Shown: positions 17,847-29,034 of the stretch, piece by piece
How positions within the stretch are numbered: position 1 is the first letter of the stretch
How the letters are laid out: each line of letters starts with the position of its first letter
Origin: a phage
Length of the DNA stretch: 64,000 bases
Sequence record: PX880102.1
Reading direction: 5' to 3' (one strand)
Notes under the pieces: model-generated
Told to the model about the DNA's origin: nothing
Databases searched by the model: none
What the model saw: only the letters and a program-made list of their open reading frames with translations
Translations under genes and position numbers: made by a program

Positions 17847-18317
17847 TTAATCATGTGTCCACACCCCATCGGTATTTGACCAAAGTCGCTGATTATCTGA
17901 TCCTCGCCACAGCTTTTTAGTCGGAAGATTTTTTTCATACTTCCCATCAATAATAACATCAACATATTTAAGCATTTCTAGTTGTTTAATATCTTCAAAC
18001 TTATATCCTGTCCACAACCAAATGCTTTTATTGGGATAAAGATTTTTTACTGTTTGAACCACAGAGTGAATCACGTCTCTGTTATCAGGATAAAGAGGGT
18101 CACCCCCAGTTATAGTTAATCCTTCTATATAATCATTATTCAAACATTCAATTAATTGTTCTAGTGTTTCACCAGTGAATGGAACACCATTTCTGGCATT
18201 CCATGTTGATTTATTATAACACCCTTCACATTTATGCAAACAACCTGTAACGAAAAGAACGACCCTGCAACCAGGGCCATTCACAAAATCGCAAGGATAA
18301 AATCTATCATAATTCAT
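17847..18317 (-). CDS. nrdG: Anaerobic ribonucleotide reductase activase NrdG (radical SAM)
   Basis: 156 aa as in T4; CxxxCxxC cluster motif (CLHKCEGCYN). Confidence 0.92.
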   Translation of the reverse strand: MNYDRFYPCDFVNGPGCRVVLFVTGCLHKCEGCYNKSTWNARNGVPFTGETLEQLIECLNNDYIEGLTITGGDPLYPDNRDVIHSVVQTVKNLYPNKSIWLWTGYKFEDIKQLEMLKYVDVIIDGKYEKNLPTKKLWRGSDNQRLWSNTDGVWTHD

Positions 18318-20131
18318 TGGTGTTTAACCCTATGCATGATTTCTTTATTTTTACCGAGATTAAATCCGCGTTCGTTCGGATTTCCCAAATAACCGCATGT
18401 TCTTCTTATGGTATTCATCTTTTTAGGATCAGTTTCTCCACAAATAGAACAAACAAATCCGTTTTCAGTAGGAGTCATTTCATGGGTACTTCCGCATGTA
18501 AAACATTTATCTACTGGCATATTAACACCAAAATAATCTAAATGTTGTGCAGCATAATCCCACACGGCCTCAAGACCTTTTAAGTTATTTTTCATATCAG
18601 GAAGTTCAACATAAGAAATGTGACCACCTGTCGCAATGAAATGATATGGTGCTTCGCGAGAAATCTTTTCAAACGGAGTAATATTTTCTTCTACTGAAAC
18701 ATGGAAACTGTTAGTGTACCAACCTTTATCGGTAACATCCTTTACACTTCCATATTTTTCGGTATCAAGTTTACAGAAGCGATAACAAAGGTTTTCAGCA
18801 GGAGTAGAATACAAGCTAAAAGCAAACCCAGTTCTTTCAGTCCACTGCTTAAGACGAGCATTCATTTTAGTTAAAATTTCCTGTCCAATATCACGACCGA
18901 CAAGAATATTCAATTCGTGAATACCAATGTATCCTAGAGACACTGAACTTCTGCCATTTTTAAATAACTCAATTATGTCGTCATCAGGTTTAAGACGAAC
19001 CCCGAATGCGCCTTCTTGGTAAAGAATAGGAGCAACAGTCGCTTTAACTCCTTTTAAGGAACTAATTCTACACATCAAAGCTTCAAAACACAAATCCATT
19101 CGTTCATTGAATAATTCAACAAATTTCTGTTCATTGAATTGTGTTCCAATATAAGAATCTAACGCGATGCGAGGAAGATTCAGTGTTACAACGCCAAGAT
19201 TATTACGTCCATCAAGAATTTCATTACCAGTCGAATCTTTCCATACGCTCAAGAAACTACGGCAACCCATTGGAGAAACAGGAATAGATGAGCCGGTGAT
19301 AACTTTATTGTTCTTAGCTGAAATAATATCAGGATACATTCTTTTGCTTGCACACTCTAAAGCAAGCTGCTTAATATCATAGTTCGGATCGTCTTTATAA
19401 AGATTAACACCTTCTTCAACGAACATAACAAGCTTAGGGAAAATAGGAGTTATCCCATCACGACCAAGACCTTTAATACGATTTTTCAGAATTGCTTTCT
19501 GAATCATTCGTTCAGTCCAGTCAGTTCCTGTACCAAATGTAATTGTTACAAAAGGTGTTTGTCCGTTTGAGCTAAAGAGAGTATTTACTTCATATTCATA
19601 AGCTTGGAATGCATCGTATACATCTTTTTCTGTTTTAGATTGAGCATAATTCAACGCATCAGCGATTTGCCATTTTTCTGCATCCTCAATATGTTTTGCA
19701 TAGGTGCGTTTAACATAAGGAGAAAGTACTTTATCTACATTAGCAAAAGTCGTTCCGCCGTATTGATGGGAAGCAACCTGTGCAGTAATTTGTGCCATAA
19801 TTGCAGTAGCAACACCGATTGATTTAGGAGTTTCAATCTGTGCATTACCAAGCTTAAATCCGTTCTCAAGCATTCCTTTTAAATCTACTAAACAACAATT
19901 AGTAAATGGAAGAGCAGGGGAATAATCAATATCGTGGAAATGAATAATTCCGCTTTCATGCGCTTTCATAATAAAAGACGGGACCATATTTTTGGCAATG
20001 TGTTTAGACACAATACCAGCCATAAGGTCCCGTTGAGTTGGAAAAACACGAGAATCTTTATTAGCATTCTCGTTTAAAAGGTCTTTATTAGTTTTATGAA
20101 TCAATCCTTCAATTTCTTTTTCAATTGTCAT
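18314..20131 (-). CDS. nrdD: Anaerobic ribonucleotide reductase NrdD, uninterrupted
   Basis: 605 aa continuous ORF; C-terminal glycyl radical motif RRTCGYLG; Zn-ribbon CFTCG...CSICG. Confidence 0.95.
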   Translation of the reverse strand: MTIEKEIEGLIHKTNKDLLNENANKDSRVFPTQRDLMAGIVSKHIAKNMVPSFIMKAHESGIIHFHDIDYSPALPFTNCCLVDLKGMLENGFKLGNAQIETPKSIGVATAIMAQITAQVASHQYGGTTFANVDKVLSPYVKRTYAKHIEDAEKWQIADALNYAQSKTEKDVYDAFQAYEYEVNTLFSSNGQTPFVTITFGTGTDWTERMIQKAILKNRIKGLGRDGITPIFPKLVMFVEEGVNLYKDDPNYDIKQLALECASKRMYPDIISAKNNKVITGSSIPVSPMGCRSFLSVWKDSTGNEILDGRNNLGVVTLNLPRIALDSYIGTQFNEQKFVELFNERMDLCFEALMCRISSLKGVKATVAPILYQEGAFGVRLKPDDDIIELFKNGRSSVSLGYIGIHELNILVGRDIGQEILTKMNARLKQWTERTGFAFSLYSTPAENLCYRFCKLDTEKYGSVKDVTDKGWYTNSFHVSVEENITPFEKISREAPYHFIATGGHISYVELPDMKNNLKGLEAVWDYAAQHLDYFGVNMPVDKCFTCGSTHEMTPTENGFVCSICGETDPKKMNTIRRTCGYLGNPNERGFNLGKNKEIMHRVKHQ

Positions 20132-21901: not shown

Positions 21902-22144
21902 TTATTCCTTAATTCCTAGTACTTGTTTAAAAGTCTCGTCGTAATCAAGACTTTGGCCCGTTTGTTCTTTATGTTTGTACATAATATCACTTACTTCTGA
22001 TAGCATATTTTTATATGAACGAGTTAAAGCAGATTTAAGCACGCTGTATCTATCAGGAAATTTACCATGTTCATTATAATAAGCTATTGCTAATTCACGG
22101 ACTGCCTTTTCAGCAGTCTCCATATATTCTTTACGCTTGGTCAT
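21902..22144 (-). CDS. Hypothetical protein (nrdC.1 position)
   Basis: Start placed at internal Met ([13 protein letters not shown]) to abut upstream gene. Confidence 0.4.
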
Positions 22145-22145
22145 T

Positions 22146-22535
22146 TTAATCCAAAATATTATTAGGCATTGGTTGAACACTCGCAAGTTCTTTAAAGAAC
22201 TCAGTAGAGTCAGGTAATTTAACCATTTCCGGAGCATGCTTGCTAAATTTGTGTTTACAATGACGGCATTTATATTCAAGTTCCGGTTTACGCCAATTAA
22301 TTAATTGAACCTGTTCAGTACCGCATTCAGGACAATTAGGAACGTTTTTAGAAGCCCTTTCGCGACGTTCAACCATAGCCATAATAGCATCCCAGGCTGG
22401 AGGTTTAAAGTCTAAATCATCACAACCATGAATCTTTCCACGCATTTCCAGATCGTCTTCTTCACCAGCCATAATAATTTTAATTAGACTGGAATTACTT
22501 GAAGCTGCAATATCTTCTAATAGACGCTTTTTCAT
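22146..22535 (-). CDS. Hypothetical zinc-ribbon protein
   Basis: ORF track 129 aa; CPECG...CRHCKHKF paired cysteines. Confidence 0.5.
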
Positions 22536-23461
22536 TTCAATACCTCAATAGCATTACGTAAACCATTTGCTTTCGCATTAAGAGCTTTTAACAATTTGGT
22601 GTGTTCGGCAATCTGGGCTTCAACTTCAATCAAACGAGCATTGAGATATTCACGTTCTTCGCTCAAGTTATCAATCTTTTCTACTTTAGGCTCTTTTACA
22701 ACTGTCTTATATGTATTAGGGTTCTTCAGTTTAATTAGAATACGTGAACTGTATAACATTGAACCATTATCTTCGATTTCATCATACATTTCTACTACGT
22801 CCATGATTTTTAACATCATGCGGAGTTTATAAGACAACGAACGAATAGTTTTGTTGTGCTTATTAATTTCTTTAGAGTTCATGGTGCCAAGATTACGTGA
22901 GTAATAATAAGGAACCTGGATATTAATTAACACTGATGAACCACCTGGCTTGTGTGTTACTTCATCAGCAATAACCCAATCCTTAACATGAACTGTATTT
23001 GTACGGTCATCACCAGCAGTAAATAGTTTGCGAGCATGCTTAAAAAGCATATTCACTTGGTCATTGAATTGACAAGCAAATTTATCAGCAAATTTAGTTT
23101 CAGGAATGGTAGATAACCAATCAGCCAAGTGGGTCTTTTTAACATCGTTAACAATAGTAAATTCAACCAAATCGGTTATAGATGTTGCAGATTTAATGAA
23201 GCTCGGCTTCATTAAGTTTTTAATGTTATCGCGAGCTACAGTAGAAGATAACATACGAGAACGTTTAAACCATTCAAGCAAATTGCCTAACGAATGAGAA
23301 TAAGCGTTTTGAGTATCTTTACAGATATGATTTTCCTGACCAACATATTGAAGGAAATCACGAAGAATATTATTGATTACTGCTCTGTGTCCGATTTGAT
23401 AATTACGGTGTTTAGTAATAAGACTGTCAAAATAATCAATATAATGTTTACGAGTTTTCAT
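22532..23461 (-). CDS. Hypothetical protein with C-terminal coiled coil
   Basis: ORF track 309 aa; heptad-rich C-terminus. Confidence 0.55.
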   Translation of the reverse strand: MKTRKHYIDYFDSLITKHRNYQIGHRAVINNILRDFLQYVGQENHICKDTQNAYSHSLGNLLEWFKRSRMLSSTVARDNIKNLMKPSFIKSATSITDLVEFTIVNDVKKTHLADWLSTIPETKFADKFACQFNDQVNMLFKHARKLFTAGDDRTNTVHVKDWVIADEVTHKPGGSSVLINIQVPYYYSRNLGTMNSKEINKHNKTIRSLSYKLRMMLKIMDVVEMYDEIEDNGSMLYSSRILIKLKNPNTYKTVVKEPKVEKIDNLSEEREYLNARLIEVEAQIAEHTKLLKALNAKANGLRNAIEVLK

Positions 23462-23513
23462 GTTCTTCTCACTTGGTTAATGATTTATACTCCGAGCCAT
23501 CCTTGGCTTTAAA

Positions 23514-24515
23514 TTACTTAATTAACTGTAAAGCTTGTTCAAGACGATCCAGGCGATTAACAGATTCTTCCCAAATCCTTTTAGCCTGCTCATATTCTTT
23601 CTGCGCTTTATTAGAAATTTCTAGAGCTTCTTTATAAGCTTTTTCTAGTGCAATAACTTCTGGACGAATTTCTATCGGTTCAGGTGAATCGTCAAGACAT
23701 TCCATTAGTTCCTCAAGGGTAGTTTCTTCTTTAAGAGTATTCACAATTTCATCACATTTTTGCTGGTAAATTTCTTTATCAGTCGGTGAGTACGCACACT
23801 TTACTTCACGAAGACTAATTATAATTTTATATCCTTCCCATTCACACATATTTTTGAAAGGATATGTATGAATACTTTTTACAGTTTCCATACAGCCCAA
23901 AGCCGTCTCTAATTGATGAGTTATAGTGCTAGCAATTGAGAAAAATTTATTAATGTTCTTTTGATTAGCTGCTGGTGTAAAAAATCCATAATTCACAAAA
24001 ATAGCTACTTTATTTTTATCAAGCTCATATTCTTTTACGATAATCATATCAGAAGCCAAAGGATGAATTTGACGATAATCGCCATAACATAATTTAGAAG
24101 CTGATTTTAGAATTTGTCCTTTGAAAAGTCTGAAATTACTAATCCAACGACGAGTAAAAATATTCTCAGGGTCTTCTTTAATATTAAGATGATAAGAATT
24201 AACATCACCGAACCAATTATATCCTACTACATCTTTAGTTCGTTTAATTTCTTTCCCAAATTTACCAAGAATATCCCTATTAACCAAATATGAAAGAAGA
24301 CGAGACCCTTTAAAGGTTTTCTTAATGGCATCTTTATCTGTACGACTAGAAATTTCACGAACTTCATGAATAAATTTGCCGGAAGAAACAATACTTGCAT
24401 CAGTATTATTGAGCCATTGATTGATAATAGAAAGAACGCTATTTTGGCCAAACATCGGTATAGCTTTATCATCAATAACGCTATTGAATGATTTGATATA
24501 TTCGTTACGAGTCAT
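23514..24515 (-). CDS. Hypothetical protein with C-terminal coiled coil
   Basis: Start placed at MTRNEYIKSF because an early promoter occupies 24544..24573 inside the longer ORF. Confidence 0.55.
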   Translation of the reverse strand: MTRNEYIKSFNSVIDDKAIPMFGQNSVLSIINQWLNNTDASIVSSGKFIHEVREISSRTDKDAIKKTFKGSRLLSYLVNRDILGKFGKEIKRTKDVVGYNWFGDVNSYHLNIKEDPENIFTRRWISNFRLFKGQILKSASKLCYGDYRQIHPLASDMIIVKEYELDKNKVAIFVNYGFFTPAANQKNINKFFSIASTITHQLETALGCMETVKSIHTYPFKNMCEWEGYKIIISLREVKCAYSPTDKEIYQQKCDEIVNTLKEETTLEELMECLDDSPEPIEIRPEVIALEKAYKEALEISNKAQKEYEQAKRIWEESVNRLDRLEQALQLIK

Positions 24516-24543
24516 AATAATCTCCTCAGTAGAAAGTAAAAAC

Positions 24544-24573
24544 ATTATACCACATCCTTGTGGCAAAGTAAAC
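24544..24573 (-). promoter_or_regulatory. T4-type early promoter
   Basis: GTTTAC, about 17 nt spacer, GTGGTATAAT on minus strand. Confidence 0.6.
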
Positions 24574-25592
24574 TAGTTCAGTGCATTTAGTGCATTGTTC
24601 AGTTTAGAACGTTGCTTCGTGAGATTTTTGACTTTTTCTTGAGCTTTTTCTAGCATCTTTTCAGCTTCTAGCACTTCATTGGTCGCTTTAACGAGTTCAT
24701 CATCTACTGCCTTGATAGACTTCTCAATCGCATCCGCGTGCCATTTTTCAACAGGTTTAAGACTCGGATTTTCAATAGGAAGAAAATTCACTTTATTGAA
24801 TTTCCATGCATCTTTATTGCCTGAACTATACATCCAAAATTTAGGATCGTTTGATGAGTAATTAGATAAATTTAAGTTATCTTGCACTTCCTGCTTTTTC
24901 TCTTGCGGGACTTCGTCCTTTCTCAAAAAATCGTATTTAAATGAAACGATCATATCAAGTTCATATGTTGTTGTATGTTCCCAATTTCGCTCAAAACGAG
25001 GTAAAATCTTAGAATGAACAGCGGCAACAACATCCATATACTTAAATGCTTCTGTCAACTGCGATTTAAGGCATTCGCAAATTGAAAGAGAATTTTTTGT
25101 ATTAGGTTTAAAGCTAATTCGTGCAGTTCTGTTATTTTCTTTTAATGGTCTTACTTCCATCTGAAGAGTATAACCATCAAATTTCAGGTTCTTTAAGTTA
25201 ATGTCAGAACCTTTTAATCGACTAGCCGTTGACAAAATTTGCTTTAATTGTTTACGGAATAGAGCAATAAATCTCCATTCAATACGATAATGATTTGGAT
25301 TAAAAAATCCAGATGATAAATCGACCTTACTCTGACCAACGCCCTGAACAAATAGAGGATTTTTATAATCAATAGTTTTACAGAAATCGGTGAGCTGCTC
25401 ACGAGCCGTCATTTGTGTAATATACCCCGCTTTACTAAAATGACGTAACCATTCACTGCTATTCATATATTTAAAGTGAATATCACGATTAACTTTATCA
25501 GGATCTAAATTATTTTGGCACAAAAATGTCATAACATCACGAGTATAGCTGGCATTACGAACCATATCTTCAATTTGAGAACGAGTTTTCAT
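24573..25592 (-). CDS. Hypothetical protein with C-terminal coiled coil
   Basis: ORF track 339 aa. Confidence 0.55.
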   Translation of the reverse strand: MKTRSQIEDMVRNASYTRDVMTFLCQNNLDPDKVNRDIHFKYMNSSEWLRHFSKAGYITQMTAREQLTDFCKTIDYKNPLFVQGVGQSKVDLSSGFFNPNHYRIEWRFIALFRKQLKQILSTASRLKGSDINLKNLKFDGYTLQMEVRPLKENNRTARISFKPNTKNSLSICECLKSQLTEAFKYMDVVAAVHSKILPRFERNWEHTTTYELDMIVSFKYDFLRKDEVPQEKKQEVQDNLNLSNYSSNDPKFWMYSSGNKDAWKFNKVNFLPIENPSLKPVEKWHADAIEKSIKAVDDELVKATNEVLEAEKMLEKAQEKVKNLTKQRSKLNNALNALN

Positions 25593-25600
25593 GGTGTTCC

Positions 25601-26524
25601 TTAAGATTTAAGTAAATCAACAATTTTAATTAATTTTTCACGTTCAGATTTAGCTTTACTACTCAATCCAGATAGTCTGAAAATTTCATCGTCATATTGT
25701 TGAATAGAAATATTCAGCTCTTCAATTTGCTTATTAAAATAATCAATTTGCTCAGAATGTTTTTCATTACTGCGAACTGGTACAGGTTTTGTAGGCAATT
25801 TAGTTAAACTGGATTCATCCGGGCGATAAATTAAAATACAACTTGAACCAATCGGGCATTTAACACCAGACACATATTCTAATGTTCCGGCTTCTTTTAA
25901 AACTTCAAAAGCTAAACAGAGATGATGCCCCATATTAACATAATCTGTAGAGCGAGCTCTGACATAATAATCATCTCCGCGAATACTAAATTTAAAGCAT
26001 TTAAGGTCTTCTGTATTATTGGTCTTAAAAATCATTTGTTTATCTAGACCTTTAGCTAATCGAGCGCCTAATGCTAATAATCGTCGTTGATTTTCCCACA
26101 AATCTGCGATCATTTGGTCAAATGATAATTTCGGCATTAGTCGACCATAAAGATCATAGCCTTTATTATAATTGCGAAGAATTTCACTCGCGTTAATACG
26201 AGACAATGCTCCAATTTTATTAAGGGCTTTCATAATGCGATTAGATAAACCCATTCCAGACCCGTTTGTTCGCTGCAAATGTTTTTCTAATCCAAATCCA
26301 ATATCAACTTTAAACTTATCTAAAATTTCTGCATGAACATCTCTGTCAATAACATTCAAATCCAAAGTTGGGTTAAATCTATGAAAAAATTTATCTGGCT
26401 CTCCACGACGAAGTACAGTCCATTCATTCATTTTTTTATTAACTAAAGATTTAATTACTGTATTGACATTATTAATTACTACTGACATATTTTCCTCACT
26501 CAATTTCAATTTTACTAAATACAC
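25601..26524 (-). CDS. Hypothetical protein with C-terminal coiled coil
   Basis: ORF track 307 aa. Confidence 0.55.
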   Translation of the reverse strand: MYLVKLKLSEENMSVVINNVNTVIKSLVNKKMNEWTVLRRGEPDKFFHRFNPTLDLNVIDRDVHAEILDKFKVDIGFGLEKHLQRTNGSGMGLSNRIMKALNKIGALSRINASEILRNYNKGYDLYGRLMPKLSFDQMIADLWENQRRLLALGARLAKGLDKQMIFKTNNTEDLKCFKFSIRGDDYYVRARSTDYVNMGHHLCLAFEVLKEAGTLEYVSGVKCPIGSSCILIYRPDESSLTKLPTKPVPVRSNEKHSEQIDYFNKQIEELNISIQQYDDEIFRLSGLSSKAKSEREKLIKIVDLLKS

Positions 26525-26958: not shown

Positions 26959-27486
26959 TTATGCGAGTACCGTCTTTAACCGTTCTTCAAACTTCCGAAG
27001 AGTATTTTGGCGTTCAGCTCTTTGCTTTTTGTAAGTTTCAATACGCTCTGAAATGAGAGTGTATCGTTCATTTACTGATTCTTTCATAAAATCAGGAATT
27101 TCACGAGAAGCTTTAATCTCGTCAAATTTATCAATAACAGCTTGCTCTTCAGCAATTAAGTTATCATACATCAAAATATCTTTCTTGATGAACTCAATAT
27201 CTTCTTGAGTTACACGAGATAACTTAGATGCTTTATCCTTTTTGTACTGTTCGTTAGTATCACGAGACCAGTGTAATGTACGATTTTTATTCGTATTCTT
27301 GTAAATTTCTACAATACCAATCTCATCAATAATAACGATCCAATTCCAACGGGATTTGTAAATTTGTCCTCCATCAACCGTGATTTCACCTCCGATTGAG
27401 ATGTCATTAAAGAACTTGCTTTGTGCTTCAGATTTAAATTTACCATCGTTGTAATTTACCAGGTTGAAAATATCTTTAGCGTTCAT
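26959..27486 (-). CDS. Hypothetical protein
   Basis: ORF track 175 aa; early promoter upstream. Confidence 0.5.
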   Translation of the reverse strand: MNAKDIFNLVNYNDGKFKSEAQSKFFNDISIGGEITVDGGQIYKSRWNWIVIIDEIGIVEIYKNTNKNRTLHWSRDTNEQYKKDKASKLSRVTQEDIEFIKKDILMYDNLIAEEQAVIDKFDEIKASREIPDFMKESVNERYTLISERIETYKKQRAERQNTLRKFEERLKTVLA

Positions 27487-29009: not shown

Positions 29010-29032
29010 AAAAAGGGAGCCCGAAGGCTCCC
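29010..29032 (-). terminator. Intrinsic terminator downstream of nucleotidyltransferase gene
   Basis: GGGAGCC-UUCG-GGCTCCC followed by U-run on minus strand. Confidence 0.65.
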
Positions 29033-29034
29033 TA

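Follow-up and report, generated by a model that had tools for sequence, protein, structure and literature searches.

The window analyzed here, a stretch of 64,000 nucleotides from the phage sequence record PX880102.1, belongs to a T4-like phage (Tequatrovirus), and its DNA is 96-98% identical to that of phages G4498 and Bas37/KarlGJung. Alignment with the annotated T4 record and with Bas37 showed that four adjacent minus-strand open reading frames (ORFs) are orthologues of T4 nrdC.3, nrdC.4, nrdC.5, and nrdC.6, and they lie where an earlier note on this DNA had placed four consecutive ORFs. The explanation that we favor, and regard as fairly probable, is that they are four tandem, diverged paralogs restricted to Straboviridae, built on one layout and each inhibiting a different host immune protein. 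T4 NrdC.5 has been shown to neutralize Dsr1, a sirtuin that depletes nicotinamide adenine dinucleotide (NAD). Evolved T4 with compensatory deletions failed to infect ECOR17 owing to this defense protein, and T4 nrdC.5, called an early gene in that study, restored plating on Dsr1 cells when supplied in trans (Srikant, Guegler and Laub 2022, PMC9391042). The four genes have long been annotated in T4, one of them with a published function; what is new here is the shared architecture that links NrdC.3, NrdC.4, and probably NrdC.6 to NrdC.5. The genes are listed below with the lengths of their products in amino acids (aa).

22532..23461, minus strand: nrdC.3 orthologue (paralog A), 309 aa, full-length match to phrog_1435
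23514..24515, minus strand: nrdC.4 orthologue (paralog B), 333 aa, phrog_1435, E 2.4e-164
24573..25592, minus strand: nrdC.5 orthologue (paralog C), 339 aa, DUF7235 (PF23882) and phrog_2351
25601..26488, minus strand: nrdC.6 orthologue (paralog D), 295 aa, phrog_2257, E 1.3e-151

The identification of each gene is supported by full-length profile matches. Both nrdC.3 (E 1.3e-115) and nrdC.4 cover the whole 334-position profile of phrog_1435, and nrdC.6 covers positions 1-303 of the 303 in phrog_2257. The nrdC.5 product matches Pfam DUF7235 from residue 1 to 339 and over profile positions 1-307 of 307 (E 1.8e-126, 422 bits, cut-off 30), and the Pfam scan returned no PF23882 match for the products of nrdC.3, nrdC.4, or nrdC.6. 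The position of nrdC.5 between nrdC.4 and nrdC.6 is the same in T4, Bas37, and G4498. At the amino acid level nrdC.3 is 60% identical to T4 and 97% to bas37_0198; within the bas37_0198-0201 series the corresponding values for T4 and Bas37 are 92% and 91% for nrdC.4, 93% and 97% for nrdC.5, and 97% and 99% for nrdC.6. The ratios of nonsynonymous to synonymous substitution rates relative to T4 were 0.29 for nrdC.3, 0.22 for nrdC.4, 0.19 for nrdC.5, and 0.08 for nrdC.6, indicating purifying selection. Among precomputed assignments, PF26897 is found on all NrdC.4 homologues and on a chimera with the C-terminal half of NrdC.3, and PF26899 is carried by all 105 of the 105 NrdC.6 homologues.

Of the possible pairs, all-against-all BLASTP detected nrdC.3 with nrdC.4 (24% identity over 226 residues, E 5e-8) and none of the others. 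These two products share phrog_1435 and align at 98% in hhalign, and on these comparisons we take their homology as certain. Family profiles were then built from database homologues, together with enlarged profiles that add remoter members, including a Mosigvirus copy. The nrdC.3/4 family aligned with that of nrdC.5 at 91% (E 1.1e-6) over 245 collinear columns reaching into the C-terminal helix, and at 96.1% (E 3.2e-9) with the enlarged profiles, which strongly indicates that the pair is related to nrdC.5. The N-termini are similar as well. It had been remarked that two of the proteins begin with MKTR, and this is true of NrdC.3 and NrdC.5; NrdC.4 begins with MTRNEY, and remoter NrdC.5 relatives begin with MITREEF or MNIKTRKEY. 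A T-R-x-E/H-Y/F-I motif is common to these three of the four families and is absent from NrdC.6. The tandemly duplicated family proposed in the earlier note is thereby borne out by the profiles for nrdC.3, nrdC.4, and nrdC.5, while for nrdC.6 it is only probable, the pairwise sequences being too diverged.

Comparisons of a merged nrdC.3/4/5 profile and of predicted structures suggest that nrdC.6 is probably a remote member of the family. Against the merged profile nrdC.6 scored 62% (E 7.5e-5) over 205 columns, from residue 76 to its last residue. AlphaFold2 models were made for NrdC.4 (predicted local distance difference test, pLDDT, 83.7; predicted template modeling score, pTM, 0.67) and for NrdC.6 (pLDDT 78.2, pTM 0.66), each from its own family alignment; that of NrdC.4 also included the NrdC.3 of the window. 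In both models the N-terminal helices lead into three core helices, after which come a beta hairpin, a long helix, another beta hairpin, a linker of low confidence, and the terminal helix. When the hhalign alignment of nrdC.6 with the merged profile was laid over the models, the DSSP state was the same in 73% of 195 residue pairs; the 275 circular-shift controls averaged 41 +/- 6% and peaked at 56%, and none of them (0/275) reached 73%. In a Foldseek search of BFVD, six of the nine significant matches of the NrdC.6 model were also significant for the NrdC.4 model, all at probability 1.00 and mostly with TM-scores of 0.41-0.51. These six shared neighbors are Straboviridae proteins of 304-335 aa from T4-like phages of Pectobacterium, Enterobacter, Yersinia, and Acinetobacter. 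We call three of the proteins demonstrably homologous and nrdC.6 a probable relative because of the profile comparisons, the agreement in secondary structure, and the shared Foldseek neighbors.

Some searches gave no further link. An exhaustive hidden Markov model (HMM) search with the NrdC.5 profile did not recover the other three families, and single homologues from Acinetobacter phages had diverged too far to bridge the families by sequence. None of the 134 ORFs in the window proved to be an additional paralog in HMM searches. The databases keep the nrdC.3/4, nrdC.5, and nrdC.6 families separate, and the link to NrdC.5 is a modest new lead; we found no literature that discusses the function of NrdC.3, NrdC.4, or NrdC.6 or their kinship with NrdC.5.

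The four proteins appear to share a layout composed of an N-terminal helical region, a small beta-beta-alpha-beta-beta domain, a flexible linker, and, at the C-terminus, an amphipathic heptad helix roughly 50 residues long. Conservation is lowest in the alpha/beta domain, where mean pairwise identity is 44.5% in the NrdC.4 family and 59% in the NrdC.6 family. In the NrdC.4 family it is highest in the C-terminal helix (74%); in the NrdC.6 family this helix ranks first or second (71%), and in the NrdC.5 family alignment it is near-invariant. The nearest solved folds of the alpha/beta domain are those of tail-terminator and tail-completion proteins (lambda gpU-like alpha/beta sandwich). In Pfam, NCBIfam, PADLOC, and PDB sequences, searches with the proteins and the three family profiles detected neither an enzymatic domain nor any other known one, and the PADLOC models gave no match at E 0.01 or better. 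Weak PDB sequence matches to designed helical repeats, a ribosomal protein, and a tape-measure protein were regarded as chance, and a resemblance between residues 30-85 of NrdC.3 and the SAM-like domain at the N-terminus of tyrosine recombinases was set aside (E 0.11 and 0.008, far below the cut-offs). Many GenBank records (e.g., OR539219.1 and MT884006.2) label nrdC.3 to nrdC.11 as thioredoxin. We rejected a thioredoxin or glutaredoxin identity for the four proteins: none has a Pfam or NCBIfam match of this kind, none of the four contains CxxC, and the folds predicted for NrdC.4 and NrdC.6 are helical with a beta-beta-alpha-beta-beta unit. Because both the fold match and the CxxC are missing, the label was most likely propagated from the gene name.

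The C-terminal helices were evaluated with an in-house heptad score and within-segment shuffles, used in place of COILS or MARCOIL, and the criterion was a continuous run of at least 4 heptads with hydrophobic a/d positions. In all four proteins the last 45-57 residues lie in one unbroken register with hydrophobic a and d positions. The segments and their permutation p values are as follows.

22535..22678, minus strand: NrdC.3 C-terminal heptad helix, aa 262-309, p 0.0008
23517..23663, minus strand: NrdC.4 C-terminal heptad helix, aa 285-333, p 0.0038
24576..24746, minus strand: NrdC.5 C-terminal heptad helix, aa 283-339, p 0.0002
25604..25765, minus strand: NrdC.6 C-terminal heptad helices, aa 242-295, with a kink at SGLSS, p 0.0008

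In a cruder 28-residue sliding scan, every C-terminus scored higher than 99.9% of random sequence. In the AlphaFold2 models NrdC.4 has one 48-residue helix at 285-332, and NrdC.6 has a 30-residue helix at 242-271 and an 18-residue helix at 277-294 with the SGLSS kink between them. At their ends the four helices agree in heptad phase and carry a similar L-x-x-A-L/I-x-x-L motif. The description of each protein as ending in a long coiled coil was correct as to the heptad-rich C-termini (p 0.0002-0.004), but "long" was overstated because the helices measure 6-8 heptads.

No catalytic features were found, the globular domain is variable, the heptad helix is conserved, and NrdC.5 has a phenotype; because of this combination, we propose that each paralog may be a stoichiometric protein inhibitor, made early in infection, of a different host immune protein. 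Target recognition would be carried out by the globular part, and the C-terminal helix might form a dimer or higher oligomer, adding avidity against oligomeric defense proteins. According to a 2026 study, the sensor domain of Dsr1 recognizes a phage major capsid protein (PMC13581612). NrdC.5 may bind Dsr1 directly, for example by blocking this sensor before late proteins appear, and NrdC.3, NrdC.4, and NrdC.6 would act likewise on other targets. As NrdC.5 is already known to disarm Dsr1, we infer that these three are candidates for similar anti-immunity roles.

The neighborhood is informative in this respect. According to the HIDEN-SEQ preprint, T4 nrdC.1 is an inhibitor of Septu and bas37_0203 an inhibitor of Druantia III, with log2 values of -2.4 for nrdC.1 and -5.8 for nrdC.8 (CFE303) on the cognate hosts; its tables class nrdC.3-6 as non-essential on K-12 in both T4 and Bas37 (10.1101/2025.11.20.689424). 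Comparison confirmed that Bas37 and KarlGJung are one phage, with bas37_0203 as its 175-aa orthologue of NrdC.8. The corresponding genes of the window flank the four paralogs.

21902..22144, minus strand: nrdC.1 orthologue, 80 aa, 97.5% identical to bas37_0196
26959..27486, minus strand: nrdC.8 orthologue, 175 aa, 99.4% identical to Bas37_0203

A longer, TTG-started ORF of 125 aa at nrdC.1 is probably not a real gene. NrdC.8 was considered as a fifth member for its helical C-terminus and was rejected, having no profile similarity and no significant heptad signal (p 0.10). The four genes lie within an anti-defense island, because NrdC.5 neutralizes Dsr1 and, on either side, NrdC.1 acts against Septu and NrdC.8 against Druantia III. 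The earlier guess of a host-interaction or anti-defense role thus agrees with the published Dsr1 experiments in the case of NrdC.5, and for NrdC.3, NrdC.4, and NrdC.6 it is an extrapolation.

Several observations speak against four related inhibitors. A demonstrated phenotype exists for NrdC.5 only among the four. In the HIDEN-SEQ transposon data, bas37_0198-0201 were not significantly depleted on the three clinical isolates CFT073, CFE299, and CFE303 (log2 fold changes of -0.73 to +0.68), and T4 nrdC.3-6 were not significantly depleted in the two T4 comparisons examined. A monomer model cannot separate a coiled coil from a helix packed onto its own domain. The link of nrdC.6 depends on the merged profile and the predicted structures, and hhalign of nrdC.6 against each other family was not significant with the original profiles (P 0.023 and 0.13) or, still, with the enlarged ones (P 0.0009 and 0.003). 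These last values would fit a family of only three, with NrdC.6 an unrelated protein of similar size whose coiled coil is convergent and whose place beside the others is coincidental. Its lack of BLASTP similarity and of the N-terminal T-R motif, its absence from the window ORFs found by HMMs of the other families, and its status as a separate family in PHROGs and Pfam point the same way. Yet such a coincidence would have to produce an end-to-end match to the merged profile at E 7.5e-5, an alignment that pairs helix with helix and strand with strand in independent models and is equaled by none of the 275 controls, and six BFVD neighbors of nine in common with NrdC.4. In addition, the shared motifs, SR-L-S...A-x-x-x-L..F/Y and the L-x-x-A-S/G-R-L helix, occur in the same order, and the C-terminal heptad phase is identical. 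We consider an unrelated NrdC.6 rather unlikely.

The four proteins might also be factors of host takeover or phage physiology (transcription, nucleoid, envelope, or nucleotide metabolism), with an indirect effect of NrdC.5 on Dsr1. The mechanism of NrdC.5 is unpublished, the genes adjoin nucleotide-reductase genes and carry the GenBank thioredoxin labels, and NrdC.3, NrdC.4, and NrdC.6 gave no phenotype in the five HIDEN-SEQ transposon comparisons examined. However, the labels stem from the gene name, with neither a thioredoxin-fold match nor CxxC behind them, and the four genes are dispensable on K-12 according to the same preprint. Copy-number variation, allelic replacement, and natural deletions at the locus form a pattern typical of arms-race genes, and three genes of the same island have specific anti-defense phenotypes, and so a purely physiological role seems unlikely. 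Cooperation of the four paralogs, their C-terminal helices hetero-oligomerizing into one multi-headed complex instead of four homo-oligomers, is quite improbable in our judgment. It would account for helices alike in length, heptad phase, and terminal motif, for their high rank in conservation in the NrdC.4 and NrdC.6 families, and for four adjacent, co-oriented genes; but plasmid-expressed NrdC.5 alone complements the deletion phage, the helix sequences are weakly similar between paralogs, and no fixed stoichiometric complex can be required because related phages have anywhere from one to four copies. A very remote variant of the inhibitor explanation is that the family consists of early decoys of virion proteins, in which the alpha/beta domain mimics the structural surface sensed by Dsr1, Avs-type, and other systems. 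The conserved coiled coil would then keep the decoy oligomeric, so that it occupies the sensor without triggering it, and the paralogs would each forestall a different one of the sensors that read the core virion proteome. Taken together, we prefer direct inhibition of different immune proteins by the four paralogs.

As judged by the sequence searches, the family is confined to T4-like phages (Straboviridae). The 3,993-bp region matched 657 phage records, nearly all of them T4-like phages of Escherichia, Shigella, Yersinia, or Salmonella, and the closest was vB_EcoM_G4498 (97.8% identity). Homologues occurred in T4-like phages or in contigs of about 165-173 kb, T4-like in size, filed under host names. 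The exhaustive HMM search with the NrdC.5 profile gave 13 matches among 1.84 billion representative proteins, several of which are fragments. The block is flanked by NrdD, endonuclease VII (gp49), NrdC, and the ATPase-like protein NrdC.10, and it keeps its position between nrdC and nrdC.10 as far afield as Acinetobacter phage Acj61, with one to four copies. Mosigvirus AV117 has NrdC.6-like, NrdC.5-like, and NrdC.3-like genes, and nrdC.4 is absent. Acj61, from a different subfamily, has two tandem members, the BFVD matches E5E4A1 and E5E4A2, with heptad helices at their ends. Phage ACG-C40 has lost nrdC.4 entirely and most of nrdC.5 and nrdC.3; its remnants (L002 5805-6216) are a 71-aa N-terminal piece of NrdC.5 and the last 72 codons of nrdC.3, out of frame.

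The nrdC.3 gene falls into three discrete allelic classes, with at least 92%, about 75%, and about 60% identity, across 654 phage records. Phages that differ in nrdC.3 class are otherwise more than 90% identical in neighboring genes, and the class of about 75% was sampled in Mosigvirus AV117. Compared with T4, the nrdC.3 product of the window is a mosaic, with an identity of 76-100% over its first 60 and last 40 residues and of 40-56% in the middle. Going by these alignments, the middle of the gene has been replaced in the allelic classes and the ends have been kept.

Rearranged members were also observed. Protein P0121 is an in-frame chimera of NrdC.5 (146-265) and NrdC.3 (138-end), joined at a short KVN/QVN microhomology, and in P0123, an NrdC.6 from Shigella phage Sf25, about 83 internal residues are duplicated in tandem. 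The 803-nt metagenome contig ERZ27280904 (L006) contains a 173-aa ORF, the 120-residue N-terminal part of which is unmatched in the phage collection; its C-terminus is exactly the last 53 residues of the window NrdC.5, followed by the start of nrdC.4. This ORF could have arisen as a chimera during assembly, or by a natural exchange that put a different globular domain on the same helix.

The gene starts were revised in two cases, nrdC.6 and nrdC.4. Product sizes of 307-339 aa had been given, and the value of 307 aa was corrected to 295 aa. The longer reading would require nrdC.6 to start at GTG 26524, which overlaps the end of nrdC.7 and is unsupported by the PHROG profile or any homologue. 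The phrog_2257 match begins at residue 13 of the 307-aa reading, and the profile and all NrdC.6 homologues start at MSVVIN or MSQAIN, consistent with ATG 26488, which has a GAGGAAA Shine-Dalgarno sequence in front and yields 295 aa. For nrdC.4, ATG 24515 has GAGGAG 7 nt upstream and yields 333 aa; longer ORFs of 343-350 aa were rejected, their starts falling within the -10 box of a promoter-like site found by a consensus scan.

24544..24572, minus strand: promoter-like site (GTTTACT, 17 nt, TGgTATAAT) between nrdC.5 and nrdC.4

This site has 10 of 12 consensus matches and a TG-extended -10, and its resemblance to a T4 early promoter is only suggestive because the consensus scan of the whole region showed no excess of promoter-like sites over shuffles. 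Farther along the window, a strong, GC-rich hairpin at 29014-29033 (both strands), AGGGAGCC-TTCG-GGCTCCCT, has a run of T behind it on the minus strand and lies directly upstream of a promoter-like TTTACA...TACTAT site and nrdC.10; the arrangement looks like a terminator-promoter junction between transcription units. On the other side, nrdD (18314-20131, minus strand) is one uninterrupted ORF of 605 aa here, and the T4 record with which it was compared has a split nrdD together with a homing-endonuclease gene.

Dozens of accessory genes in T-even phages lack an explanation, and only for a few is the host defense that they overcome known. If NrdC.5 belongs to a family of four, NrdC.3, NrdC.4, and NrdC.6 become three concrete counter-defense candidates, and a variable alpha/beta recognition domain joined to a conserved oligomerizing helix offers a testable hypothesis at the domain level. 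The nrdC.3 classes and the differences in copy number could help explain host range among near-identical therapeutic T4-like phages.

Among known systems, the closest is T4 NrdC.5 (DUF7235) itself, which resembles the nrdC.5 product of the window in sequence (93% identity), length, position, and full-length Pfam match. The Dsr1 activity was shown with the T4 allele, whereas the window allele is known from its sequence; the T4 study (PMC9391042) offers neither a mechanism nor a structure and is silent on the neighboring paralogs. T4 NrdC.3 differs more, belonging to another allelic class with 60% identity and a replaced central part. The anti-toxin-antitoxin island dmd-tifA-adfA, like NrdC.1 and NrdC.8, follows a similar logic of small to medium, non-essential, fast-evolving genes that each counter one defense, but these proteins are not homologous to the four, and NrdC.8 is alike only in its helical C-terminus. 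DSAD1, from an SPbeta-type phage, inhibits DSR2 (PMC11087589) and is a functional analogue of NrdC.5, both being phage proteins that disarm a defense-associated sirtuin; it is the template for the sensor-blocking mechanism proposed here for NrdC.5.

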